A stretch of 11,509 nucleotides of DNA from a virus (Duplodnaviria > Heunggongvirae > Uroviricota > Caudoviricetes). The DNA lies in IMG/VR virus record IMGVR_UViG_648276665_000003, positions 1 to 11,509 of that record; one strand, 5' to 3'. The notes under the pieces were generated by a model, which searched no databases, was not told the DNA's origin, and saw nothing but the letters and a program-made list of their open reading frames with translations. Shown in pieces: positions 1 to 11,509 of this stretch (within the stretch, counting starts at the first letter, position 1; every line of letters begins with the position of its first letter). Position numbers and translations under genes: made by a program.

Positions 1-24
1 GGGGGGGGGGGGGGTTTTTTTTAT
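1..24. other. Homopolymer run (G x15 then T x9) at the window edge; probable sequencing or assembly artefact
   Basis: Directly visible: 'GGGGGGGGGGGGGGGTTTTTTTTT' at the very start of the window, unlike any neighbouring sequence. Confidence 0.5.
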
Positions 25-107
25 CAATCACTTACATCAGTTTCCGTAAGAAAACAGTAACTTAAGAAAACCTATAAGGGACTGGAAGGGCTACAAAGTT
101 CTGAGAG

Positions 108-128
108 TGTGGACACTATGTGGACACT
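108..128 (+). repeat. Tandem direct repeat TGTGGACACT (108-117 and 119-128), putative Int arm-type binding sites of the att arm
   Basis: Two perfect 10-bp copies 11 bp apart centre to centre, lying just beyond the 3' end of int. As I recall, P2 Int arm sites are direct repeats resembling TGTGGACA. Confidence 0.4.
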
Positions 129-140
129 CAGAAGGGAAAT

Positions 141-1121
141 TTATAACGTCACTCCGCCTTTTAGAGGATTCAGCGCGACGGCATTTTGCAGGTAGTCAGG
201 CGCAAGGTGCGCATAGGCCATCGTCTGCTGAATGCTCGCATGTCCCAGAATCTGTTGCAGTGCGATTATATTGCCCCCATTCATCATGAAATGGCTTGCG
301 AATGTATGCCGCAGGATGTGGGTTGCCTGATTGGGTGGTATATCTGGCTTCACTCTGCGTAAAATCCCGCAAAACTTCTCATAATCAACTTTGAATAATT
401 TAGCGCTGGCCTCCTCTTTAACTTTTTTCTCCAGTTCCTCAGAAATCGGCACGGTTCGCTTTTTACCGTTTTTGGTTTTCAGGAAGGTAACCCTGCAATT
501 TGTAATCTGTGCTGGTTTTAGCGTGGCAACTTCCGTCCATCTTCCTCCAGTGCTCAGACATAAAAGTGCGACAAGTAAGTCATCACCATCCAAAACATTT
601 AACAGTTTTTCGATTTCTGCTTTTTCCAGGAACGTCATTTCAGGGTTGGCCTCCGCCAGTGGCGGCAGTCCGTGAATTGGGTGTTGCCCGGAAAATTCAT
701 CCAATTGAATTAATTTTGTGAACATGCCGGATAATCGGTACATGTCACGGTTTATCGTTGCGGCACTGATACCATTTCGTAGTCGCATGGAACGATAATC
801 CATCAAAGCTCTTTTGCTCATCCGGCTCACTGGTATATCACCTATGCCGCTGATGGTTTTGAGCAGATGATTAAACTCTTTTGTTCCATGCTCGTGGTTT
901 TGCCCGTGATATTTCCACCAGATGTCCAGCAACTCACTCAAAGTTCTGCGATCTGCTCGCTGACCTGCCCATTCTTTCTGGCTGGCGTAGGCGATTGTGT
1001 ATCGCTCAAATGCTACAGCCTCAGCTTTTCTTTCAAATTTCCTGCGGATGCGTTTTCCGTCGCGACCGCGAGGTCTAATGTCCACTTCATAGCGTCCATC
1101 ATCGAGCTTCTTAATTGACAT
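141..1121 (-). CDS. int: Tyrosine site-specific integrase, P2 Int family
   Basis: C-terminal catalytic region with 'HILRHTFASHF' (HxxR box) and 'TMAYAHL' (catalytic Tyr). The N-terminus 'MSIKKLDDGRYEVDIRP' is P2-Int-like. I take the ATG at 1121 as the start because GAGGG sits 7 nt upstream; the longest ORF begins at 1151 with no Shine-Dalgarno. Confidence 0.9.
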   Translation of the reverse strand: MSIKKLDDGRYEVDIRPRGRDGKRIRRKFERKAEAVAFERYTIAYASQKEWAGQRADRRTLSELLDIWWKYHGQNHEHGTKEFNHLLKTISGIGDIPVSRMSKRALMDYRSMRLRNGISAATINRDMYRLSGMFTKLIQLDEFSGQHPIHGLPPLAEANPEMTFLEKAEIEKLLNVLDGDDLLVALLCLSTGGRWTEVATLKPAQITNCRVTFLKTKNGKKRTVPISEELEKKVKEEASAKLFKVDYEKFCGILRRVKPDIPPNQATHILRHTFASHFMMNGGNIIALQQILGHASIQQTMAYAHLAPDYLQNAVALNPLKGGVTL

Positions 1122-1190
1122 AAGAAAGCCCTCTGACGCTGTATTCACCATCTTGGTAACAAATGGTGAAAATGTAATGTTTATAGAGTG

Positions 1191-1484
1191 TTAACCAGTC
1201 TGTTTTTCGGAGCGGTCTGATTCTGTTGGTTTTTGCCCAATGTGTGCGAGAGCCGGCGCGATCTGACCAGCTTGTGGTGACGTATCACCAGTCATTAACC
1301 AGAGCGTATATTTTTTAAATAAAGGCGTATTTGTGACTCGCATAACGATGCTGAGACCAGGGTCTTTATGCCCACTTTCGTAATTTTTGACTGTTCCTAG
1401 AGCTATCCCGCTAATTTCGCTGAATTTCGCCTGTGTTAAGCCTTCTGCTTTCCTAATCGCTTTCAGTTTTTCGAATGTCTGCAT
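1191..1484 (-). CDS. C: Immunity repressor, P2 C-like (HTH)
   Basis: 97 aa with an N-terminal helix-turn-helix ('LTQAKFSEISGIALGTVKNYESG') and a C-terminal 'YTLWLMTG...QIAPALAH' resembling P2 C. It lies immediately upstream of int on the same strand and is divergent from cox. Confidence 0.8.
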   Translation of the reverse strand: MQTFEKLKAIRKAEGLTQAKFSEISGIALGTVKNYESGHKDPGLSIVMRVTNTPLFKKYTLWLMTGDTSPQAGQIAPALAHIGQKPTESDRSEKQTG

Positions 1485-1513
1485 TTGACAGTAACCTATT
1501 GGTGACTTATATT
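1485..1513 (+). promoter_or_regulatory. Putative early promoter Pe (sigma70-like): -35 TTGACA (1485-1490), 17-bp spacer, -10 TATATT (1508-1513)
   Basis: Consensus -35 and near-consensus -10 with 17-bp spacing, oriented toward cox and abutting the C start codon, as in the P2 immunity switch. Confidence 0.55.
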
Positions 1514-1540
1514 CCCGTCAAAAGGTTGTGTATTGGTGAC
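1497..1540 (+). promoter_or_regulatory. Direct repeat TATTGGTGAC (1497-1506 and 1531-1540); putative C-repressor operator half-sites
   Basis: Two perfect 10-bp direct repeats 34 bp apart. The first lies in the Pe spacer and the second just downstream of the -10. P2 C binds direct repeats flanking Pe, though the spacing here differs from what I recall for P2. Confidence 0.4.
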
Positions 1541-1636
1541 CTTTTGAGTGTGTTAGCCAGTCCCTAGAAAGGACAGGGGCGACCTAGAAGGGGCTGGATC
1601 TAATAAGGGTAACACGAAAGCAAAAAGGGCTAATCA

Positions 1637-1909
1637 ATGGAAGTCAATGACTATGTGATTCAGTACCCGATTGATGCGGTACATACGGTTAAGTTTGCAG
1701 AGTTACTTGGTAAGCCAGAAACGGCTGTAGTCAAGATGGTAAAAGAGAATAAATTGCCAGTTATTGAGCTTCGTGATCCAAGTAAGCCGAACGCTCGTGT
1801 CGGTGAGAAGTGGGTTTTCATTCCAGAGTTTAATCGCGCTGTACGAGAGGCGTTTTATAACCGACCAGTTGAACAGCGTGATGCATGGCTTTTGTGGATG
1901 GGGTTGTGA
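1637..1909 (+). CDS. cox: Cox-like excisionase / early-operon regulator
   Basis: 90 aa, first gene after Pe and divergent from C, the same size class and position as P2 Cox. ATG preceded by AAGGG. Confidence 0.7.
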   Translation: MEVNDYVIQYPIDAVHTVKFAELLGKPETAVVKMVKENKLPVIELRDPSKPNARVGEKWVFIPEFNRAVREAFYNRPVEQRDAWLLWMGL

Positions 1910-1911
1910 TT

Positions 1912-2082
1912 ATGAGTGAACCGCGTTGTATTGCTCAGTTACTGCGTAACGAAAGCCCCAGGGCGATTGACTTCACCATCACCCACGGTAAGGGGCGTAA
2001 GGGAATCATTATCCGCACCAAAAAACAGAGTCCGTTAAAAAAGGCTCTGACCTTTCTGAAAAGCCGGAGGGTCTGGAAATGA
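1912..2082 (+). CDS. Small early-operon protein of unknown function (position of P2 orf78)
   Basis: ATG at 1912 is 3 nt after the cox stop, and its stop overlaps the start of the next gene (ATGA at 2079-2082). The ORF track extends it to 1885, overlapping cox. Confidence 0.5.
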   Translation: MSEPRCIAQLLRNESPRAIDFTITHGKGRKGIIIRTKKQSPLKKALTFLKSRRVWK

Positions 2083-2579
2083 CAGTGATGACGCTCAATC
2101 TCGTCGAAAAACAGCCAGCAGCTATGCGCCGGATAATTGGTAAGCATCTTGCCGTCCCTCGCTGGCAGGATACATGTGATTATTATAATCAGATGATGGA
2201 GCGCGAACGGCTAACAGTTTGCTTTCATGCGCAGTTAAAACAACGTCACGCAACGATGCGTTTTGAAGAAATGAACGACGTCGAACGTGAACGGCTGGTT
2301 TGTGCAATTGATGAATTGCGTGGGGCATTCTCAAAACGCCGTCAGGTTGGCGCAAGTGAGTATGCATATATTAGTTTTTTAACAGTCAGTCAGCGTCGTA
2401 CTTTATTTATGCATGCCGGATTGACTGAAAAAGAATTCAATCAGCCATACTGGCGAATTAATGAAGAGTCATGTTACTGGCGTGATGCTTTATTCCGTGC
2501 ATTACGTGAACTATTCAGTCTGTTTGAGTATGCACCGACAATTCTGACGTCGGTAAAACCAGAGCAATATTTGCATTAA
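2079..2579 (+). CDS. B: Replication protein B-like
   Basis: 166 aa, the same length as P2 gpB as I recall, at the expected position between cox/orf78 and A. Translationally coupled to the upstream ORF. Confidence 0.6.
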   Translation: MTVMTLNLVEKQPAAMRRIIGKHLAVPRWQDTCDYYNQMMERERLTVCFHAQLKQRHATMRFEEMNDVERERLVCAIDELRGAFSKRRQVGASEYAYISFLTVSQRRTLFMHAGLTEKEFNQPYWRINEESCYWRDALFRALRELFSLFEYAPTILTSVKPEQYLH

Positions 2580-2600
2580 ATAATTAACCAGAGTTTTTAA

Positions 2601-2629
2601 CGCACTTAATCGTGCGGGGCTTCTTTTTG
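2601..2629 (+). terminator. Weak hairpin plus T-tract after B (possible attenuator)
   Basis: Stem CGCAC / GTGCG (2601-2605 and 2612-2616) with a 6-nt loop, followed by 'CTTCTTTTT'. The stem is short, so this is weak. Confidence 0.2.
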
Positions 2630-2642
2630 CCTGGAGAAAGTC

Positions 2643-2867
2643 ATGCATACAGTTTCTGAAAATCAGTGCGGTAAATACGCATTACTGCTGCAACAGGCCA
2701 GAACCGAAGCACAGGCCGACGCTGCGACGCGCTTTTCTTCTCATCTTGACGCCATGATTCGCCATATCACAAAGGCGGAGTTATCCCGCGTGGAGATAGT
2801 CGAGCTGCTCAGTCAGGAGTCGGAAAAATTTCACAATATCGGATTGTCTCGCGGGGAGGTGCTTTGA
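2643..2867 (+). CDS. Small early protein of unknown function (position of P2 orf80)
   Basis: 74 aa; ATG preceded by GGAGAAAG. Its stop overlaps the next start. Confidence 0.55.
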
Positions 2868-3166
2868 TGTCCTGTTCTCATTCAGTTGTATTACTGAATA
2901 ACGCCTTAAAAATCGCCGTTATGGAAAATGGTGATTTGTCTCTTATTCAACTTTGTCTTAATAAAGAAAAACGCGACATAACTGAATCTGTTATCGCGAT
3001 TTATCAGAATGAATTAAACCTCCTGTCTGATGTGGTCAATTTACTTGTTAAACGCGCTGTGTTCCACAAGCAAATTTCCTCAGTGGATGAACTGACAAAA
3101 TTAACGACAGAACTCGCCAGTTATTGCGCTGATGTATCCAGGAAACTTAACGATAAAAGGAGCTGA
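2867..3166 (+). CDS. Small early protein of unknown function (position of P2 orf81)
   Basis: ATG at 2867 overlaps the upstream stop (TGATG) and has GGAGG 7 nt upstream. The ORF-track start at 2864 is a TTG. Confidence 0.55.
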   Translation: MSCSHSVVLLNNALKIAVMENGDLSLIQLCLNKEKRDITESVIAIYQNELNLLSDVVNLLVKRAVFHKQISSVDELTKLTTELASYCADVSRKLNDKRS

Positions 3167-3168
3167 TA

Positions 3169-3393
3169 ATGCCGGACAACGTAGATTTTATTCAGGAACA
3201 ACAGGCTGAATTACTGGAGCGCCAGATTAACGCGGCAAGGGTAAAACATTGCGGTGTTTCTTCGCTGGTTTGCGAAGAGTGTGATGCGCCAATACCTGCT
3301 GCCCGTCGTGCGGCTTATCCGTCAGCCACGCGTTGTGTTTCCTGTCAGTCAGTCTTTGAAGCAAAAAACAAACATTACCGGAGAACGGCATGA
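3169..3393 (+). CDS. TraR/DksA-type C4 zinc-finger protein (position of P2 orf82)
   Basis: 74 aa with 'CEECDAPIP...' and 'CVSCQ' (CxxC...CxxC). Strong Shine-Dalgarno AAAGGAG. Confidence 0.65.
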   Translation: MPDNVDFIQEQQAELLERQINAARVKHCGVSSLVCEECDAPIPAARRAAYPSATRCVSCQSVFEAKNKHYRRTA

Positions 3394-3665
3394 GTATTCG
3401 TATTGAAATTGGCGAACGTTATGTCGTTACCAGTGACAGCTTTCAGTTTATTCTCCACGAGAAAAAGAGAGCGGAAAGCGGTAAAAACGCCGGTCAGGAA
3501 TGGCTGTCGGTGGTTGGTTATTACCCGAAATTAAGCCAGCTCGTTTCCGGCCTGATGCATCACGATATTCTGACCGGAAGCGCAAAATCTTTTGCCGATT
3601 TAAACGCGCAGGTTGAGCAACTCAGCAAGCGTTGTTCAGAGGCTTTTGGCTCATATGGACGTTAA
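3390..3665 (+). CDS. Small early protein of unknown function (position of P2 orf83)
   Basis: 91 aa; its ATG overlaps the upstream stop (ATGA), and its 3' end overlaps the start of gene A. Confidence 0.55.
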   Translation: MSIRIEIGERYVVTSDSFQFILHEKKRAESGKNAGQEWLSVVGYYPKLSQLVSGLMHHDILTGSAKSFADLNAQVEQLSKRCSEAFGSYGR

Positions 3666-5952
3666 AGCCTCCGGGCGTTTTGTCCCTCCGTCAGCATTTG
3701 CCGCAGGTACCGGTAAGACGTTTACCGGTGCTTATGCATGGAACGCGCCACGCGAGGCTGTCGGGCGCGAAAGACCCCTTACACGTGACGAGATGCGTCA
3801 GGTGCAAGGTGTTTTATCCACGATTAACCGTCTGCCTTACTTTTTGCGCTCGCTGTTTACTTCACGTTATGACTACATCCGGCGCAATAAAAGCCCGGTG
3901 CACGGGTTTTATTTCCTCACATCCACTTTTCAGCGTCGCTTATGGCCGCGCATTGAGCGCGTGAATCAGCGCCATGAAATGAACACCGACGCGTCGTTGC
4001 TGTTTCTGGCAGAGCGTGACCATTATGCGCGCCTGCCTGGAATGAATGACAAGGAGCTGAAAAAGTTTGCCGCCCGTATCTCATCGCAGCTTTTCATGAT
4101 GTATGAGGAACTCTGCGATGCATGGGTGGATGCGCATGGCGAAAAAGAATCGCTGTTTACGGATGAGGCGCAGGCTCACCTCTATGGTCATGTTGCTGGC
4201 GCTGCACGTGCTTTCAATATTTCCCCTCTCTACTGGAAAAAATACCGTAAAGGACAGATGACCACGAGGCAGGCATATTCTGCCATTGCCCGTCTGTTTA
4301 ACGATGAGTGGTGGACTCATCAGCTTAAAGGCCAGCGTATGCGCTGGCATGAGGCGTTACTGATTGCTGTCGGGGAGGTCAATAAAGACCGTTCTCCTTA
4401 TGCCAGTAAACATGCCATTCGTGATGTGCGTGCACGCCGCCAGGCAAATCTGGAATTTCTTAAATCGTGTGATCTCGAAAACAGGGAAACAGGCGAGCGC
4501 ATCGACCTTATCAGTAAGGTGATGGGCAGTATTTCTAATCCTGAAATTCGCCGGATGGAGCTGATGAACACCATTGCCGGTATTGAGCGTTACGCCGCCG
4601 CAGAGGGTGATGTGGGGATGTTTATCACGCTGACCGCGCCGTCAAAGTATCACCCGACACGTCAGGTTGGAAAAGGCGAAAGTAAAACCGTCCAGCTAAA
4701 TCACGGCTGGAACGATGAGGCATTTAATCCAAAGGATGCGCAGCGTTATCTCTGCCGTATCTGGAGCCTGATGCGCACGGCATTCAAGGATAATGATTTA
4801 CAGGTCTACGGTTTGCGAGTCGTCGAGCCACACCACGACGGAACGCCGCACTGGCATATGATGTTTTTTTGTAATCCACGCCAGCGTAACCAGATTATCG
4901 AAATCATGCGTCGCTATGCGCTCAAAGAGGATGGCGACGAAAGAGGAGCCGCGCGAAACCGTTTTCAGGCAAAACATCTTAATCGGGGCGGTGCTGCGGG
5001 GTATATCGCGAAATACATCTCAAAAAATATCGACGGCTATGCACTGGATGGGCAGCTCGATAACGATACCGGCAGACCGCTGAAAGATACTGCCGCGGCT
5101 GTTACCGCATGGGCGTCAACGTGGCGCATTCCGCAATTTAAAACGGTTGGCCTGCCGACAATGGGGGCTTACCGTGAACTACGCAAATTGCCTCGCGGCG
5201 TCAGCATTGCTGATGAGTTTGACGAGCGCGTCGAGGCTGCACGCGCCGCCGCAGACAGTGGTGATTTTGCGCTGTATATCAGCGCGCAGGGTGGGGCAAA
5301 TGTCCCGCGCGATTGTCAGACTGTCAGGGTCGCCCGTAGTCCGTCGGATGAAGTTAACGAGTACGAGGAAGAAGTCGAGAGAGTGGTCGGCATTTACGCG
5401 CCGCATCTCGGCGCGCGTCATATTCATATCACCAGAACGACGGACTGGCGCATTGTTCCGAAAGTGCCGGTCGTTGAGCCTTTGACTTTAAAAAGCGGCA
5501 TCGCCGCGCCTCGGAGTCCTGTCAATAACTGTGGAAAGCTCACCAGCGGTGATACTTCGTTACCGGCTCCCACGCCTTCTGAGCACGCCGCAGCAGTGCT
5601 TAATCTGGTTGATGACGGTGTTATCGAATGGAATGACCCGGAGGTCGTGAGGGCGCTCAGGGGCGCATTAAAACACGGGCTGAGAACACCAAATCGTCAG
5701 CAGAGAAACGGAAGCCCGTTAAAACAGTATGAAATGGCACCATCGGCCAGACTGACCCGGTCGGAACGAATGCAAATTACCCGTATCCGCGTTGACCTCG
5801 CTCAGAACGGTATCAGGCCGCAGCGATGGGAGCTTGAGGCGCTGGCGCGTGGGGCGACCGTAAATTATGACGGGAAACATTTTACTTATCAGGTCGCTGA
5901 TGAGTGGCCGGGATTCTCAACAGTATTAGAGTCAAACTCAGTGAAGCGTTAA
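3655..5952 (+). CDS. A: Rolling-circle replication initiator (HUH endonuclease), P2 gpA family
   Basis: HUH motif 'TPHWHMMFF' and tandem-tyrosine motif 'YIAKYISK'. I take the ATG at 3655 ('MDVKASGRF...'), giving 765 aa against about 761 for P2 gpA; the ORF-track start at 3613 is a TTG. Confidence 0.9.
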   Translation: MDVKASGRFVPPSAFAAGTGKTFTGAYAWNAPREAVGRERPLTRDEMRQVQGVLSTINRLPYFLRSLFTSRYDYIRRNKSPVHGFYFLTSTFQRRLWPRIERVNQRHEMNTDASLLFLAERDHYARLPGMNDKELKKFAARISSQLFMMYEELCDAWVDAHGEKESLFTDEAQAHLYGHVAGAARAFNISPLYWKKYRKGQMTTRQAYSAIARLFNDEWWTHQLKGQRMRWHEALLIAVGEVNKDRSPYASKHAIRDVRARRQANLEFLKSCDLENRETGERIDLISKVMGSISNPEIRRMELMNTIAGIERYAAAEGDVGMFITLTAPSKYHPTRQVGKGESKTVQLNHGWNDEAFNPKDAQRYLCRIWSLMRTAFKDNDLQVYGLRVVEPHHDGTPHWHMMFFCNPRQRNQIIEIMRRYALKEDGDERGAARNRFQAKHLNRGGAAGYIAKYISKNIDGYALDGQLDNDTGRPLKDTAAAVTAWASTWRIPQFKTVGLPTMGAYRELRKLPRGVSIADEFDERVEAARAAADSGDFALYISAQGGANVPRDCQTVRVARSPSDEVNEYEEEVERVVGIYAPHLGARHIHITRTTDWRIVPKVPVVEPLTLKSGIAAPRSPVNNCGKLTSGDTSLPAPTPSEHAAAVLNLVDDGVIEWNDPEVVRALRGALKHGLRTPNRQQRNGSPLKQYEMAPSARLTRSERMQITRIRVDLAQNGIRPQRWELEALARGATVNYDGKHFTYQVADEWPGFSTVLESNSVKR

Positions 5953-6035
5953 CTCAATCAATAGGAGTTTATAAGTTAGGCCTCGAGATTTTGTAGAAAG
6001 GGATGTATACTGAGCATCGTATAGATTTGGAGTGA

Positions 6036-7061
6036 ATGATGACTGTAAAGGTGATAGACCTTTTTTGTGGTGCTGGCGGATTAACTCATGGTTTACAGCT
6101 TGCGGGGCTTGATGTCGTTGCAGGCATAGACCTTGAGGGGGAATGTCGGTTTCCCTATGAAAGAAACAATAAATCTAAGTTTATTGAGCAAGATATCGCT
6201 AAAGTAACAAAAGAGGAACTGCTGAGGCTTTATGGTGATGCGTCTGTAAAAGTATTGGCAGGATGCGCACCTTGCCAACCTTTTTCAAAATATACTCAAG
6301 GAAAAGATAAGGCTGATGATAAAAAATGGCCTCTTCTTTATGAGTTCGAACGTTTAATTCGCGAAGTATCTCCAGAAATCGTAACAATGGAGAACGTTCC
6401 TGATGTAACTAAACATAAAGTTTATAATGATTTTTATAATTCATTGTTAAAGTTGGGCTATTATGTTTGGGCGTCGAAGGTTGATTGTGTCGAATATGGA
6501 ATCCCACAAAACCGTTCCCGTCATGTATTGTTGGCTTCAAAATTGGGGGCGATTGAGTTAGTAAAACGTGACGATGTTATTTTGAAAACAGTTAGAGATG
6601 CAATAGGAAATCTTCCTCCGTTAGAAGATGGCCAAACAGATCCAAATGATATATTACATAGAGCCAGTAAATTAAATCCGATTAATAAAAAAAGAATTAT
6701 ACACTCTGTTCCTGGTGGTACATGGAAGGACTGGCCGAAGGAGCTGATTGCTGCTTGTCATATGAAATCTAGCGGTAAAGGATATGCTAGTGTATATGGG
6801 CGCATGTCTTGGGATAAGCCAAGTCCAACAATTACAACTCTTTGTTATGGTTTCGGAAATGGACGTTTTGGACATCCAGAACAGCATAGAGCGATTTCTC
6901 TTAGAGAGGCTGCTTTATTGCAAACTTTTCCGATGGATTATATCTTTGTAGAAGACAAAGACAAGTTTGTTATAAGAAGTATTGGGAAAATGATAGGTAA
7001 TGCTGTTCCTGTGGAACTAGGAAAAGCAATTGGGCAATCAATCAAGAACCATTTAGAATGA
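6036..7061 (+). CDS. DNA (cytosine-5)-methyltransferase
   Basis: Canonical C5-MTase motifs in order: I 'DLFCGAGG', IV 'GCAPCQPFS' (catalytic PC), VI 'TMENVPD', VIII 'QNRSRHVL', X-like 'GNAVPV'. Shine-Dalgarno GGAG 6 nt upstream. The gene is AT-rich (about 35% GC in sampled stretches) against roughly 50% in the flanking phage genes. Confidence 0.9.
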   Translation: MMTVKVIDLFCGAGGLTHGLQLAGLDVVAGIDLEGECRFPYERNNKSKFIEQDIAKVTKEELLRLYGDASVKVLAGCAPCQPFSKYTQGKDKADDKKWPLLYEFERLIREVSPEIVTMENVPDVTKHKVYNDFYNSLLKLGYYVWASKVDCVEYGIPQNRSRHVLLASKLGAIELVKRDDVILKTVRDAIGNLPPLEDGQTDPNDILHRASKLNPINKKRIIHSVPGGTWKDWPKELIAACHMKSSGKGYASVYGRMSWDKPSPTITTLCYGFGNGRFGHPEQHRAISLREAALLQTFPMDYIFVEDKDKFVIRSIGKMIGNAVPVELGKAIGQSIKNHLE

Positions 7062-7067
7062 TAAAAT

Positions 7068-7084
7068 GGCCTGCTTTGCAGGCC
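7068..7084. terminator. Bidirectional rho-independent terminator between the convergent MTase gene and DUF262 operon
   Basis: Perfect 7-bp stem GGCCTGC / GCAGGCC with a TTT loop, flanked by A/T-rich runs on both sides, between the stops at 7061 (+) and 7091 (-). Confidence 0.6.
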
Positions 7085-7090
7085 TTATTA

Positions 7091-7771
7091 CTATTGTTCT
7101 AAATATTCATTATTATTTATATAGTGCTCTATATTATTCGCGATTGCATCAAGATAGGCGATTACTTCTAATGAAATATTCTCTAAGTCCTGATATGAAA
7201 CATTTTTTCCAATCTCAGCAAATGATACATTGCCATGAGATAAATCATTACGATGTTGTTTGACAGTGGCTAATTTTTCACCATGTTTAGTGTGAGTGTA
7301 ATCAGAATATGTTGAAAAACCATATATTTTCGATTTTTCTTTGATTTCCTCTCTATCAATATTTCCTGAGAATATTTTCTTTTTGTTGAAAGTGCCATAA
7401 GATATACCGCAAGATATACCTTTAGTAAGACGGTTAACTAAACTTTCAATATTTACAGATTCATTTTTTAATCTTTTTAATATTTCTGACCTGATATTTT
7501 TCCTGAGTTTGTCAAATTCTACGTTTCTATCATAAATAGTCTCATGAATAAGGCAGATAGCTTCTCTCATTGTTGATTCAATGAGGTTATATAATAGAAT
7601 ATATACTGCCCCCTTTAGAGTTTTTCGTGATTGAGCAGTAATGGAGAACTTATGTTCTTTATCATCAGATGATATCAGTTCTGCACCGGCATACTCAATA
7701 AATTTCAAAAGATCTAAATAGGCCAAGATCTCTCCTGACCTTTCGTCAAAATCCTCACGAAAACGATCCAT
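7091..7771 (-). CDS. Hypothetical protein with C-terminal Rx4H motif (HEPN-like, putative RNase effector); second gene of the DUF262 operon
   Basis: 226 aa with 'QHRNDLSHG' (R-x4-H) about 45 residues from the C-terminus, where HEPN catalytic motifs sit. The start codon is 1 nt after the DUF262 stop, with Shine-Dalgarno GAGGAT. Very AT-rich. The HEPN assignment is from the motif only. Confidence 0.6.
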   Translation of the reverse strand: MDRFREDFDERSGEILAYLDLLKFIEYAGAELISSDDKEHKFSITAQSRKTLKGAVYILLYNLIESTMREAICLIHETIYDRNVEFDKLRKNIRSEILKRLKNESVNIESLVNRLTKGISCGISYGTFNKKKIFSGNIDREEIKEKSKIYGFSTYSDYTHTKHGEKLATVKQHRNDLSHGNVSFAEIGKNVSYQDLENISLEVIAYLDAIANNIEHYINNNEYLEQ

Positions 7772-7772
7772 G

Positions 7773-8915
7773 TTAATCCTCTAATAATTTATCCCGAACA
7801 TATTCAATTCGTTCAATTACCTTCACGCGACTATTAGCTCCGTCTGAAGTGGTCAATCGTTTGAATTCTTCTGAGCTTAGCCAATCCAAGTTCTTGGGAA
7901 CAAGGTCAGGGATTTCACGTAATGCAAGTGCTGCGCCAACAGCGAGAGATTCGAATCTAACTCGAGGTGTAGATTTTGCAGTAATAGTTTTCTTGAATCC
8001 TGCTGGGAAATAGTTATCAACAAAAGATAGAACATTAGCAAACTCTTGTTTCATTGAGTTTTGTTTAGTTTCGTCTATATCTCGATTTTCTAACATATAG
8101 TCATTTAGAAAATCCCGTACGGAATGATCAAAGTTCTTGTACTTATCTAAGTAGGCAAAAAATCTTAATGTAAATTCTAACCGTTCATCTCGTTTTTCTT
8201 TAGTCTGAGATAAAGGTGCTAATTCTTTAAATTTAGGTATTGTTGAGCATGGCTTAATAACCTGTGTATATAAATTTGTTGAACCAAGTTCTGATCCTTT
8301 ACGGACTTCCATATCTTTCAATATATCGCTGCCAGAGTTAATACGTTCAAAAAGATCTCTACGGGTTTCTTCATTGCATTTAGAACTCAATTCTATAACG
8401 CGGACAGGAATTCTCATGAAACGACGTTGACGTGATAATGGTAAATCTTGGAATTTGAAACCATTAAGGGCGTCTAAAGATTTCAGATCTTGTAAAACTA
8501 ATTCATTTTGGATAAAAGCGTGTATAGTCCTAACTCGCTGTGAGCCATCAACAATCTCAATTCGCCCATCTAAATCGGGATCTTCGGAGAGAACATCTGC
8601 TGTAAATATATATGGTATAGGAAAACCCAAAATCAAAGACTCTATCAATCTTGATTGTCTTTTTTCACTCCAAACAAAATCCCTTTGATAATCAGGAACA
8701 AAGAGTTCGTTAGTATCATCCTCTAATCCGCTATGATACTTATTAACTAATAACTCAACGGTAAATTCTTTGGTCTCAAAATCCACATCCTTTTGCTCAG
8801 CACGAATTTGCTCTTCAGCGTTTTGCTTTATCACCTCTAGCTGAGCAAGCAACTCTGCTCTTTTCTTGGCATTATCTTCATTTTCTAGTTGAGATTTTAA
8901 ATCAATAATGTCCAT
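7773..8915 (-). CDS. DUF262 (ParB/GmrS-like NTP-binding) domain protein; first gene of a two-gene operon
   Basis: DUF262 signature blocks 'VPDYQRDFVW', 'LIESLILGFPIP' and 'DGSQRVRTI' (DGQQR-type). The likely start is the ATG at 8915 with AGGGAG 6 nt upstream; the ORF track extends to a TTG at 8933. There is no recognisable fused His-Me/HNH (DUF1524) domain. Confidence 0.8.
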   Translation of the reverse strand: MDIIDLKSQLENEDNAKKRAELLAQLEVIKQNAEEQIRAEQKDVDFETKEFTVELLVNKYHSGLEDDTNELFVPDYQRDFVWSEKRQSRLIESLILGFPIPYIFTADVLSEDPDLDGRIEIVDGSQRVRTIHAFIQNELVLQDLKSLDALNGFKFQDLPLSRQRRFMRIPVRVIELSSKCNEETRRDLFERINSGSDILKDMEVRKGSELGSTNLYTQVIKPCSTIPKFKELAPLSQTKEKRDERLEFTLRFFAYLDKYKNFDHSVRDFLNDYMLENRDIDETKQNSMKQEFANVLSFVDNYFPAGFKKTITAKSTPRVRFESLAVGAALALREIPDLVPKNLDWLSSEEFKRLTTSDGANSRVKVIERIEYVRDKLLED

Positions 8916-9100
8916 GTCTAGCTCCCTTAACAAGTGTTAAAAATTGAAGCGGATAGCATACCGCATAGATCATGAAAAATGCCATCATGTGCATGGATTT
9001 GCATGCGTCAGAAGTCGCTTTTATTGTTAGTTATCACTAGCGATGGTGTGCTCTTGGAGTGTTCATGCAACTGCATTAAAAATGCCCCATGAAGCGGGCG

Positions 9101-9119
9101 GGCGAGGCGGGGAAAGCAC
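9101..9119. other. cos site: 19-nt cohesive-end sequence of P2/186/P4-type phages
   Basis: Exact match to 'GGCGAGGCGGGGAAAGCAC', which I recall as the P2/P4 cohesive end. It lies between the end of the early region and gene Q, as in P2. Confidence 0.75.
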
Positions 9120-9261
9120 TGCGCGCTGGCGGTGGTGCTGATTTTATTTTTTCAGCGTCTGAGCGCGTCTTGATGGCGTTTAGATTGTGCGCCGGGGCGT
9201 TGGTGTGTCTGCGGGGTGTTTTGTGCGGTGGTGAGCGTGTGAGGGCGTGATGACGGGGTGT

Positions 9262-9283
9262 AAAAAAGCCGCCCGCAGGCGGC
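9262..9283 (-). terminator. Rho-independent terminator downstream of Q
   Basis: On the minus strand: stem GCCGCC / GGCGGC with a 4-nt loop followed by TTTTTT (plus strand 'AAAAAAGCCGCCCGCAGGCGGC'), immediately 3' of the Q stop. Confidence 0.6.
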
Positions 9284-9288
9284 GATGT

Positions 9289-10323
9289 TCAGCCGTTGTC
9301 AGTGTCCAGTGAGTAGTTTTTAAAGCGGATGACCTCCTGGCCGAGCCAGCCGTTTATTTCCCGAATCCTGTCCTGTAACGGGATAAGCTCATTGCGGACA
9401 AAGACCTTTGCCACTTTCTCAATATCACCCAGCGACCCGACGTTCTCCGGCTTGCCCCCCATCAACTGAAAGGGGATGCGGTGCGCGTCCAGCAGGTCAG
9501 CGGCGCTGGCTTTTTTGATATTAAAAAAATCGTCCTTCGTTGCCACTTCACTGAGCGGGATAATTTTAATGCCGTCGGCTTTCCCCTGCGGGGCATAGAG
9601 AAACAGATTTTTAAAGTTATTGCGGCCTTTTGACTTAACCATGTTTTCGCGAAGCATTTCGATATCGTTGCGGTCCTGCACGGCATCGGTGACGTACATG
9701 ATGTATCCGGCATGTGCGCCGTTTTCGTAATACTTGCGGCGGAACAGCGTGGCCGACTCATTCAGCCAGGCAGAGTTAAGGGCGCTGAGATATTCCGGCA
9801 GGCCGTACAGCTCCTGATTAATATCAGGCTCCAGCAGGTGAAACACGGAGCCGGGCGCGAAGGCTGTCGGCTCGTTGAAGGACGGCACCCACCAGTAAAC
9901 ATCCTCCTCCACGCCACGACGGGTATATTTGGCCGGTGAGGTTTCCAGTCTGATGACCTTACCGGTGGTGCTGTAACGCTTTTCCAGAAACGCATTACCG
10001 AACACCAGAAAATCCAGCACAAAGCGGCTGAAATCCTGCTGGGAAAGCCACGGATGCGGGATAAATGTCGAGGCCAGAATATTGCGTTTGACGTAAATCG
10101 GGGAGCTGTGATGCACGGCAGCACGCAGGCTTTTTGCCAGACCGGTAAAGCTGACCGGTGGCTCATACCATCTGCCGTTACTGATGCACTCAACGTAATC
10201 CAGAATGTCACGGCGGTCGAGTACCGGCACCGGCTCACCAAAGGTGAATGCCTCCATTTTCGGGGCGCTGGCGGTCATTTTTTTTGCCGCAGGTTGCGGT
10301 GTTTTCCCTTTTTTCTTGCTCAT
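9289..10323 (-). CDS. Q: Portal protein, P2 gpQ-like
   Basis: 344 aa, the same as P2 gpQ as I recall. It is the first gene after cos on the complementary strand, and its ATG overlaps the stop of the upstream terminase fragment (TGATG). Confidence 0.8.
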   Translation of the reverse strand: MSKKKGKTPQPAAKKMTASAPKMEAFTFGEPVPVLDRRDILDYVECISNGRWYEPPVSFTGLAKSLRAAVHHSSPIYVKRNILASTFIPHPWLSQQDFSRFVLDFLVFGNAFLEKRYSTTGKVIRLETSPAKYTRRGVEEDVYWWVPSFNEPTAFAPGSVFHLLEPDINQELYGLPEYLSALNSAWLNESATLFRRKYYENGAHAGYIMYVTDAVQDRNDIEMLRENMVKSKGRNNFKNLFLYAPQGKADGIKIIPLSEVATKDDFFNIKKASAADLLDAHRIPFQLMGGKPENVGSLGDIEKVAKVFVRNELIPLQDRIREINGWLGQEVIRFKNYSLDTDNG

Positions 10324-10592
10324 CAGTAAAACTCCAGAATGGTGGATGTCAGCGGGGTGCTGATACCGGCGGTGAGTGGCTCATTTAACAGGGCGTGCAT
10401 GGTCGCCCAGGCGAGGTCGGCGTGGCTGGCTTCCTCGCTGCGGCTGGCCTCATAGGTGGCGCTGCGTCCGCTGCTGGTCATGGTCTTGCGGATAGCCATA
10501 AACGAGCTGGTGATGTCGGTGGCGCTGACGTCATATTCCAGACAGCCACGGCGGATGACGTCTTTTGCCTTGAGCACCATTGCGGTTTTCAT
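10323..10592 (-). pseudogene. P: C-terminal fragment of the terminase ATPase subunit (P2 gpP-like); the 5' portion is missing
   Basis: The reading frame directly upstream of Q with stop/start overlap extends only about 90 codons before running into antisense FI sequence and a stop at 10716-10718; gpP should be about 590 aa. Identity rests on position. Confidence 0.55.
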
Positions 10593-10621
10593 TTCCGGCG
10601 TGTAACCGTACCTGCTCCGAT

Positions 10622-10969
10622 GACCCGCTGTTCCTCTTTGAAAACTACACCCGCACCGCGCAGGTGCTGGCCGACACGATGGCTGAGGCGCACATGTGGG
10701 CGGTGGACAAGCCCATCACCGCAACGCTGATTCGCGACATCGTTGACGGCATCAATGCCAAATTCCGTGAGCTGAAAACAAACGGCTATATCGTGGATGC
10801 GACCTGCTGGTTCAGCGAAGAATCCAACGATGCGGAAACCCTCAAGGCCGGAAAACTGTATATCGACTACGACTATACCCCGGTGCCTCCTCTTGAAAAC
10901 CTGACCCTGCGCCAGCGTATTACCGATAAATACCTGGCAAATCTGGTCACCTCGGTTAACAGCAATTAA
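10622..10969 (+). pseudogene. FI: C-terminal fragment of the tail sheath protein (P2 gpFI-like); the 5' portion is missing
   Basis: Open frame ending '[11 protein letters not shown]' immediately upstream of FII, with no plausible start or Shine-Dalgarno; about 115 codons against about 396 for intact gpFI. The fragment start is approximate. Confidence 0.55.
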
Positions 10970-10981
10970 GGAGCCTGACCG

Positions 10982-11500
10982 ATGGCAATGCCGCGCAAAC
11001 TCAAGTTAATGAACGTCTTTCTGAACGGCTACAGCTATCAGGGCGTCGCGAAGTCCGTCACGCTGCCAAAACTGACCCGTAAGCTCGAAAACTATCGCGG
11101 TGCGGGGATGAACGGCAGCGCACCGGTAGACCTCGGCCTTGATGACGATGCGCTGTCAATGGAGTGGTCGCTCGGGGGCTTCCCGGATTCGGTTATCTGG
11201 GAGCTTTACGCCGCAACCGGTGTGGATGCTGTGCCGATTCGTTTTGCAGGCTCTTACCAGCGTGACGATACCGGCGAAACGGTGGCCGTCGAAGTGGTCA
11301 TGCGTGGACGTCAGAAAGAAATCGACACCGGCGAGGGTAAACAGGGAGAAGACACTGAGTCGAAAATCTCCGTGGTCTGCACCTATTTCCGGCTGACGAT
11401 GGACGGTAAGGAGCTGGTCGAAATCGACACCATCAACATGATTGAGAAGGTGAACGGCGTCGACCGGCTGGAGCAACACCGCCGCAATATCGGCCTGTGA
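10982..11500 (+). CDS. FII: Tail tube protein, P2 gpFII-like
   Basis: 172 aa, the same as P2 gpFII as I recall, with strong Shine-Dalgarno TAAGGAG. It follows the FI fragment in the FI-FII order. Confidence 0.75.
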   Translation: MAMPRKLKLMNVFLNGYSYQGVAKSVTLPKLTRKLENYRGAGMNGSAPVDLGLDDDALSMEWSLGGFPDSVIWELYAATGVDAVPIRFAGSYQRDDTGETVAVEVVMRGRQKEIDTGEGKQGEDTESKISVVCTYFRLTMDGKELVEIDTINMIEKVNGVDRLEQHRRNIGL

Positions 11501-11509
11501 TTTTCATCC

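Follow-up and report, generated by a model that had tools for sequence, protein, structure and literature searches.

A probable single deletion between recurrent breakpoints joins genes P and FI in a defective P2-like prophage of Escherichia coli

The DNA analyzed here, IMG/VR virus record IMGVR_UViG_648276665_000003 from position 1 to position 11,509 (the whole stretch, 11,509 nucleotides long, is called the window below), carries the genes of a P2-like phage up to a point at which the terminase gene P runs directly into the tail sheath gene FI. We conclude, with a probability of roughly 80%, that the window is a defective P2-like prophage in Escherichia coli in which one deletion joined P to FI, and that both ends of this deletion are endpoints that recur, precise to the nucleotide, in other prophages. 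We observed directly what the parts are, where they break, which genes are present and that the breakpoints recur. As a prophage remnant the window is ordinary; the hotspot pattern is the new part.

We mapped the window by BLAST against phage P2 (NC_001895) and combined the result with an open reading frame (ORF) list and a Pfam scan; coordinates are window positions unless P2 is named. Window 1911-5932 matched P2 26290-30311 without gaps at 96.6% identity, and window 9072-9119 matched the right cos end, P2 33546-33593. On either side of the P-FI join, window 9101-10604 corresponded to P2 1-1502 at 96.9% identity and window 10583-11509 to P2 18458-19382 at 98.0% identity. For nucleotide identities of 97-98% over 1.5 kb plus 0.9 kb, chance is not a realistic explanation.

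An earlier note, made from the letters alone, had proposed that a C-terminal fragment of P of about 90 codons abuts a C-terminal fragment of FI of about 115 codons at a junction within 10593-10625. All three estimates were right or nearly so. Pfam, BLAST and base-by-base comparison place the P remnant at 10323-10604 on the minus strand: 282 nucleotides (nt), comprising the last 93 codons and the stop codon. Its promoter pP and its start codon are gone, and an 89-amino-acid (89-aa) ORF runs from an internal ATG at 10592 (10323-10592). This ORF matches the C-terminal part of the terminase nuclease domain (Pfam Terminase_6C, E 8.5e-17). The FI remnant, located by Pfam and BLAST, occupies 10605-10969 on the plus strand, from codon N276 to the stop (121 codons and the stop codon); it too has lost its promoter, pF, and its start codon. 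Its product matches Phage_sheath_1C (E 4.1e-24) over profile positions 1-104 of 104. The FI break thus falls on a protein domain boundary, and the truncated gene encodes the whole C-terminal domain of the sheath. The two fragments diverge and touch by their truncated 5' ends, so that they are not literally tail to tail.

The join reads ...CCGGCGTGTA followed directly by ACCGTACC.... When we compared it base by base with both P2 parent regions, the only bases common to the two parents were GTA, at 10602-10604 with no strand assigned, which equal both P2 1500-1502 and P2 18475-18477. P-derived sequence (...CATTTCCGGCGTGTA) has its last base at window 10604, P2 1502, while FI-derived sequence (GTAACCGTACC...) has its first base at window 10602, P2 18475, and is FI only from 10605, P2 18478. 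The parents also resemble each other imperfectly, with gaps, over about 22 nt, which is why BLAST carries the FI alignment back to 10583. The breakpoint mapping against a P2 reference and the search for microhomology, both of which the earlier note had suggested, therefore end at these three shared bases.

In P2 coordinates the missing interval is 1503-18477, or 16,975 bp, in agreement with the absence of about 17 kb claimed in that note. Measured in the closest intact relative, the prophage of E. coli NH-21, it is 14,544 bp. By the P2 annotation the interval holds O, N, M, L, X, Y, K, lysA/B/C, R, S, orf30, V, W, J, I, H, G and Z/fun, and none of the P2 genes from O through Z/fun is present in the window between Q and the P fragment on one side and the FI fragment on the other. 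The capsid, lysis and most tail genes are accordingly absent, just as had been supposed. All four late promoters that depend on Ogr (pP, pO, pV and pF) are lost as well; the P2 sites 3016/3127, 10308 and 17626 all lie within 1503-18477. No promoter-like (sigma-70-like) site was found upstream of the FI fragment on the plus strand near the junction. Judging from this loss of genes and promoters, the element would be unable to make virions or to lyse the cell, and the late genes that remain, namely Q, P', FI', FII, E, E', T, U and D (P' and FI' being the truncated genes), are probably silent.

We propose that a single deletion joined P after P2 1502 to FI from P2 18478. The recombination would have been illegitimate, either homology independent or assisted by microhomology, rather than homologous or of a classical site-specific kind, because GTA alone (plus the imperfect 22-nt patch) is shared by the parents and because no insertion sequence (IS) or other mobile element, no long repeat and no inserted DNA is found at the window junction.

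The window is one contig of a larger scaffold. The 96-aa product of the FI fragment led to draft NCBI assembly GCA_000164455.1, whose scaffold GG773309.1 is 100% identical to window 4679-11509. There FII is followed by E, E', T, U, D and ogr, and beyond ogr comes the host gene fieF. In all, the element spans about 16.6 kb between cpxP and fieF; the window is its left two thirds. The NH-21 prophage (NZ_CP148034, 1.984-2.015 Mb) is apparently complete, with a whole late region, and it aligns with window 10-10604 at 99.82% identity, with 19 mismatches in 10,595 nt and no gaps. The 14,544 bp lost from the window are still present in it between P and FI, and over the tail arm it is 99.1% identical; the prophage of CFSAN064036 likewise shares the chromosomal site, the integrase, the cargo island and 99.8% identity over window 10-10604. 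So few differences from NH-21 indicate that the deletion is evolutionarily recent. Since the left arm is free of gaps and has only these 19 mismatches, the integration, immunity and replication genes look intact. The element keeps int, C, cox, B, A with the origin of replication (ori), cos, ogr and the cargo island, and FII is full length, which bears out the list of retained parts in the earlier note (integration, immunity, replication, cargo island, cos, Q and FII). Colinear with an intact relative save for one missing block, and flanked by the host genes cpxP and fieF, the element is a defective (cryptic) prophage with a large internal deletion, as had been claimed.

Both breakpoints are used elsewhere. 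In five complete E. coli genomes a P fragment adjoins an FI fragment, and the joins differ from that of the window. Strain EH01-18-02 and the SRY strains (locus L002) join P2 1457 to the window's own FI position (...CGGCGGATA, then ACCGTACC...), and strain 01G17CRGN001 (L003) joins P2 1457 to FI 18030. Both loci resemble the window in that Q and a truncated P adjoin a truncated FI followed by FII through ogr, and L002 shares the chromosomal locus too. They differ from it in the P endpoint, which is 45 nt off, and in their cargo; in addition, L003 keeps 447 nt more of FI, and L002 has further deletions in int and A. A further 45-bp deletion between CGGCGGATAAC and CGGCGTGTAAC could turn a window-type junction into that of L002 (L002 12190-12240 against window 10545-10610), and an L003-type junction could also give rise to it through a TAACCG repeat; a divergence of about 2% argues instead for an independent origin.

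The 89-aa ORF of truncated P was found in 794 collection blocks. Our survey of the P side covered the ten loci returned for this ORF together with IMG/VR and metagenome hits. The break follows ...TTTCCGG(C/T)GTGTA in the window and in L005, L006, L008, L009, L012, L013, L014, L040, L046 and L087; the junction of L092 is that of L005, and in L007 the break lies 1-3 nt earlier. Beyond the break, 12 different partner sites were counted: P2 2090, 2538, 5591, 11317, 12159, 12757, 18030, 18477, 18756 and 22305 and two unmapped positions in tail-fibre sequence. Prophages with the truncated P sit at three chromosomal loci (yegQ-yegR, pflB and cpxP) and have different integrases, and the Q-P' arm of the window groups with the intact NH-21 phage, apart from the other truncated copies. 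These three observations rule out common descent of all copies truncated at 1502, and because of them we regard the deletion events as independent. A check that is not conditioned on the 89-aa ORF gave the frequency of this break. Among complete E. coli genomes, 1550 records matched P2 1303-1502 at 95% identity or more, as opposed to 1527 for 1503-1702 and again 1527 for 1703-1902, and hence about 1.5% of copies end at P2 1502.

Short exact patterns were less informative. In a pattern scan of IMG/VR most hits were natural synonymous variants of intact P, and 43 of the 56 metagenome matches to the 19-mer TTTTCATTTCCGGTGTGTA (L060 and 42 gut contigs) were an unrelated gut-bacterial gene. Scans of this type in very large collections return chance matches.

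The FI break, 18477/18478, after which the sequence reads ACCGTACCTGCT..., has six distinct partners on its left: in the window the partner is P 1502, in L002 P 1457, in NCTC9041 gene I at 12479, in L052 an invertase gene, and in L013 and L014 two unmapped sequences. In L052 (170-235) it is the tail-fibre invertase gene (...LDRLGRS...EELRE) that is cut short and runs straight into the FI hotspot. L009 retained the opposite side of the site, joined to gene D; of FI this prophage, at the pflB locus, keeps only a 447-bp stretch from inside the gene, with 18030 and 18477 as its exact bounds, which lies between P' and the end of D (L009 9544-9991). In loci that had not been selected through FI, four of the nine FI/FII breakpoints fall on one nucleotide, and for that reason the coincidence is far beyond chance. 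A step test on match counts, as applied to P, has to be read at FI with the knowledge that the site is used from both sides and that divergence differs between the two windows compared. Finished, independently sequenced genomes use both breakpoints, and PGAP annotates truncated P and FI pseudogenes there. There is also a third recurrent endpoint, in gene D at P2 23743/23744 (GGGGCGTT before the break and GCGGAGTTC after it), which has two different partners, in L009 and L014. The bases GCGGA follow the breaks at gene D 23743/23744, P 1502 and V 10670.

Several points weigh against this interpretation. No copy of the exact window junction turned up among 5,426 complete E. coli genomes, the GTDB species representatives or the metagenome contigs, and one draft assembly is its only source. 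The right arm is 99.06-99.12% identical to NH-21, with 55 differences in 5.9 kb, compared with 99.8% for the left arm, so two prophage copies could have been involved. Conditioning the P-side survey on the 89-aa ORF requires a break within about 46 nt upstream of its ATG; within that stretch all breaks are at one position, save for the shift of 1-3 nt in L007. Three truncated P genes found in other genera break at aa 376, 424 and 462, and since these lie elsewhere the hotspot seems to be tied to P2-type sequence of E. coli. Finally, the TA-flank score described below was defined after the sites had been seen.

What singles out these sites? Some local property of P 1502 and FI 18477/8 probably makes them fragile or prone to recombination, with most crossovers falling on TA that is G rich on its 5' side and C rich on its 3' side. 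The parents share TA at most hotspot junctions, including all but two of the mapped partners of the P site. Against all 965 TA dinucleotides of the P2 late region, 12 distinct breakpoint sites were enriched for G at -2/-3 and for C at +3/+4, approximately cGGnTAnCCg (p ~3e-5).

We considered whether an enzyme (a recombinase, transposase or topoisomerase) cuts and rejoins at such TA-centred, roughly palindromic cGGnTAnCCg sites, which would make inactivation semi-specific and not a matter of random decay. Its appeal is plain: endpoints are reused with nucleotide precision and with many partners, TA occurs at most mapped hotspot junctions with the flank enrichment just given (a post hoc score), and L013 (GCA_038757605.1, cpxP locus) by itself has lost DNA at six or more distinct internal places (several of these deletions cross over at TA, and P 1502 and FI 18478 are among their ends). 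Homology between partner flanks is too weak for annealing alone to explain the choice of site. However, partners lacking TA occur at the same anchors (P2 18756, P2 22305, L013 and L052), the deletions that these prophages have in the early region neither involve TA nor recur, no IS element was present at any junction examined, and the known enzymes that we compared do not fit. The published determinants of cleavage by the type IIA topoisomerases, gyrase and Topo IV (-4G, -2A, -1T / +5A, +6T, +8C, with a 4-bp stagger), of which only the core was scored, do not match the hotspot sites. As for the serine invertase of the tail fibre, its native site in NH-21 (TTCTCCCAAACCAACGTTTAAGAAAA) has an AA core and the opposite G/C pattern, while the hotspots have a TA core, and no hotspot break is central in an invertase-type 26-bp site (AAACC-NN-GGTTT-like halves). 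We consider such an enzyme doubtful. The wider proposal, that E. coli P2-like prophages are dismantled by semi-site-specific cutting and rejoining at a few TA-centred sites including 1502 and 18477/8, is a tentative one that we judge rather unlikely; under it the enzyme could come from the host, from the phage or from some other mobile element, and the window would be a product of joining two such sites to each other.

Three other candidates were rejected. Hairpins do not mark the sites: 60-nt folds at P2 1502, 18477, 18030 and 5591 and at the window junction were within the range of shuffled sequence (z -1.1 to +0.9), and the fold at 11317 alone stood out (z -2.4). The hotspots have no more than CGGAGT or GCGGA in common with the ori nick region of the P2 A protein, and no deletion ends at ori. 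A pseudo-cos at P2 1495-1513 matches the 19-nt cos at 13 of 19 positions, but the break falls in the middle of that stretch and not at the nick positions. We found no published description of these breakpoint hotspots.

A different history would have two P2-like copies joined to each other, either in tandem at cpxP-fieF or as a new arrival beside an older remnant, with the attachment site and early DNA of the second copy also lost. The unequal identity of the two arms to NH-21 (99.82% on the left, 99.06-99.12% on the right) would be explained in this way, and many E. coli genomes hold two to four P2-like copies. P2-like genomes are mosaic, however, so that their arms often diverge unevenly; the parts have precisely the orientation and order that a simple internal deletion would leave, and NH-21 is still among the best matches of the right arm. 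We think a join between copies improbable.

Nor does the remnant look like a functional element. P4, a satellite, has P2-type cos and relies on P2 late genes, and R-type tailocins are remnants of phage tails. Could the remnant be a satellite of this sort that depends on a helper, using its own int, cox and A and having its cos packaged by a co-resident P2-like phage, or could its truncated structural proteins interfere with incoming P2-like phages? Two 16.6-kb copies make one P2 genome length; int, C, cox, B, A, ori, cos and ogr are undamaged and differ very little from their counterparts in a complete phage; FI' is exactly the whole sheath C-terminal domain; and many E. coli genomes carry several P2-like prophages. 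Against this, genes for capsid size or for exploiting a helper are missing, the late genes have no promoter and FI' has no native start codon, and remnants with the same endpoints differ so widely in retained content that they resemble decay and not a conserved design. We rate either function as quite improbable. Membership in known classes of phage-derived element leads to the same place. The window has cos and holds P2 genes and cargo only, and is neither a P4-like satellite nor a phage-inducible chromosomal island; P4 shares the P2-type cos and has sid, psu, delta and the alpha primase, and no P4 genes occur in the window. An R-type tailocin has complete sheath, tube, baseplate, fibre and lysis genes and no head genes, whereas the window has a truncated sheath gene and no baseplate, fibre or lysis genes, so that identity is rejected. 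The P2-like (Peduoviridae) order int-C-cox-B-A ... cos-Q-P and FI-FII-E-T-U-D-ogr is present with high similarity to P2; the complete set of morphogenesis and lysis genes, with full-length P and FI, is not, and the element is a derivative of such a phage and no longer a functional one.

An assembly artefact, a contig chimera of reads from the P and FI regions of one intact prophage or of two, is very unlikely: the source is a draft scaffold contig with N gaps and homopolymer artefacts at both ends and its exact junction is in no other assembly, but assemblers need long exact overlaps and the parents have no more in common than 3 nt or an imperfect 22-nt patch, about 900 nt of contig lie beyond the junction, and both breakpoints recur in finished genomes, where an artefact is not expected to land on two recurrent endpoints.

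The remaining features of the window follow the order of its relatives. A poly-G run at 1-14 (no strand), at the cpxP-side edge of the prophage, is a contig-end artefact, and homology to related prophages begins at base 10; the window starts GGGGGGGGGGGGGGTTTTTTTT where NH-21 has CCCCCACATGATGTGGGGGTTTTTTTT, and the artefact replaces the hairpin CCCCCACATGATGTGGGGG of the relatives. At the other end, 11509, a run of N replaces the hairpin GGTCAGCCAGGCTGACC that comes after FII (L050 6832-6962). The integrase (141-1151, minus strand; Pfam Int_N and Phage_integrase, annotated phage integrase in NH-21) is of the cpxP-fieF site type and is not the P2 int allele, to which BLAST found 80% identity over 138 nt only. 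From the ORF list and colinearity with NH-21, we assign a C-like helix-turn-helix immunity repressor (1191-1484, minus strand; the NH-21 gene is annotated helix-turn-helix protein) and a Cox family excisionase/regulator (1637-1909, plus strand). Replication gene B (2079-2579, plus strand) was identified from the 1911-5932 match and the P2 annotation. Four small ORFs (orf80-83) separate it from the replication endonuclease gene A, which contains ori (3655-5952, plus strand; Phage_GPA, E 3e-124; coordinates converted from NH-21). Beyond the cargo island lie the 19-nt cohesive end sequence of cos (9101-9119, plus strand), placed by the P2 matches on either side and the P2 cos sequence, and the full-length portal gene Q (9289-10323, minus strand, 344 aa; ORF list and Pfam). 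To the right of the FI fragment, the tail tube gene FII is complete (10982-11500, plus strand, 172 aa; Phage_tube, E 2e-60) but has lost any upstream promoter.

The cargo island (6036-8933, mixed strands), at the tin/old position of P2, holds by Pfam a C5 cytosine methyltransferase on the plus strand and, on the minus strand, a HEPN MAE_28990 protein and a DUF262/GmrSD_N protein. PADLOC matched the DUF262 protein to NsnA (2e-54) and PD-T4-2_A (5e-35) and the methylase to DrmMII/MTase_II. Intact prophages, those of NH-21 and CFSAN064036, carry an identical island. Its role is probably anti-phage defence, and retention of defence-type cargo is likely the reason that the remnant persists, through selection. 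Phage P2, the type member of Peduovirus, shares with the window the gene order, 96-98% identity for orf78-B-A, cos, Q, the 3' ends of P and FI, and FII. It differs in having 1503-18477, in its integrase and attachment site, and in carrying tin and old where the window has the methylase, HEPN and DUF262 genes.

E. coli K-12 carries a P2 remnant too (ogrK/yegZ). Defective P2-like prophages that retain defence genes have been described as non-mobile, with defence cargo that hardly differs from what intact phages carry (Nucleic Acids Res 2026, PMC13586616). The window resembles those elements as a non-mobile P2 derivative with defence cargo. That study saw no obvious pattern in the core genes lost or inactivated, and recurrent breakpoints are not described there.

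Taken alone, the window is one more decayed prophage with defence cargo, and it fits current views of prophage domestication. The recurrence of its endpoints calls for one caution, that shared breakpoints are not proof of common descent. Recurrent breakpoints would also serve as markers for annotating remnants. If independent prophages repeatedly break at the same nucleotides, then the inactivation of P2-like prophages in E. coli would be partly predictable and may have a specific molecular cause.

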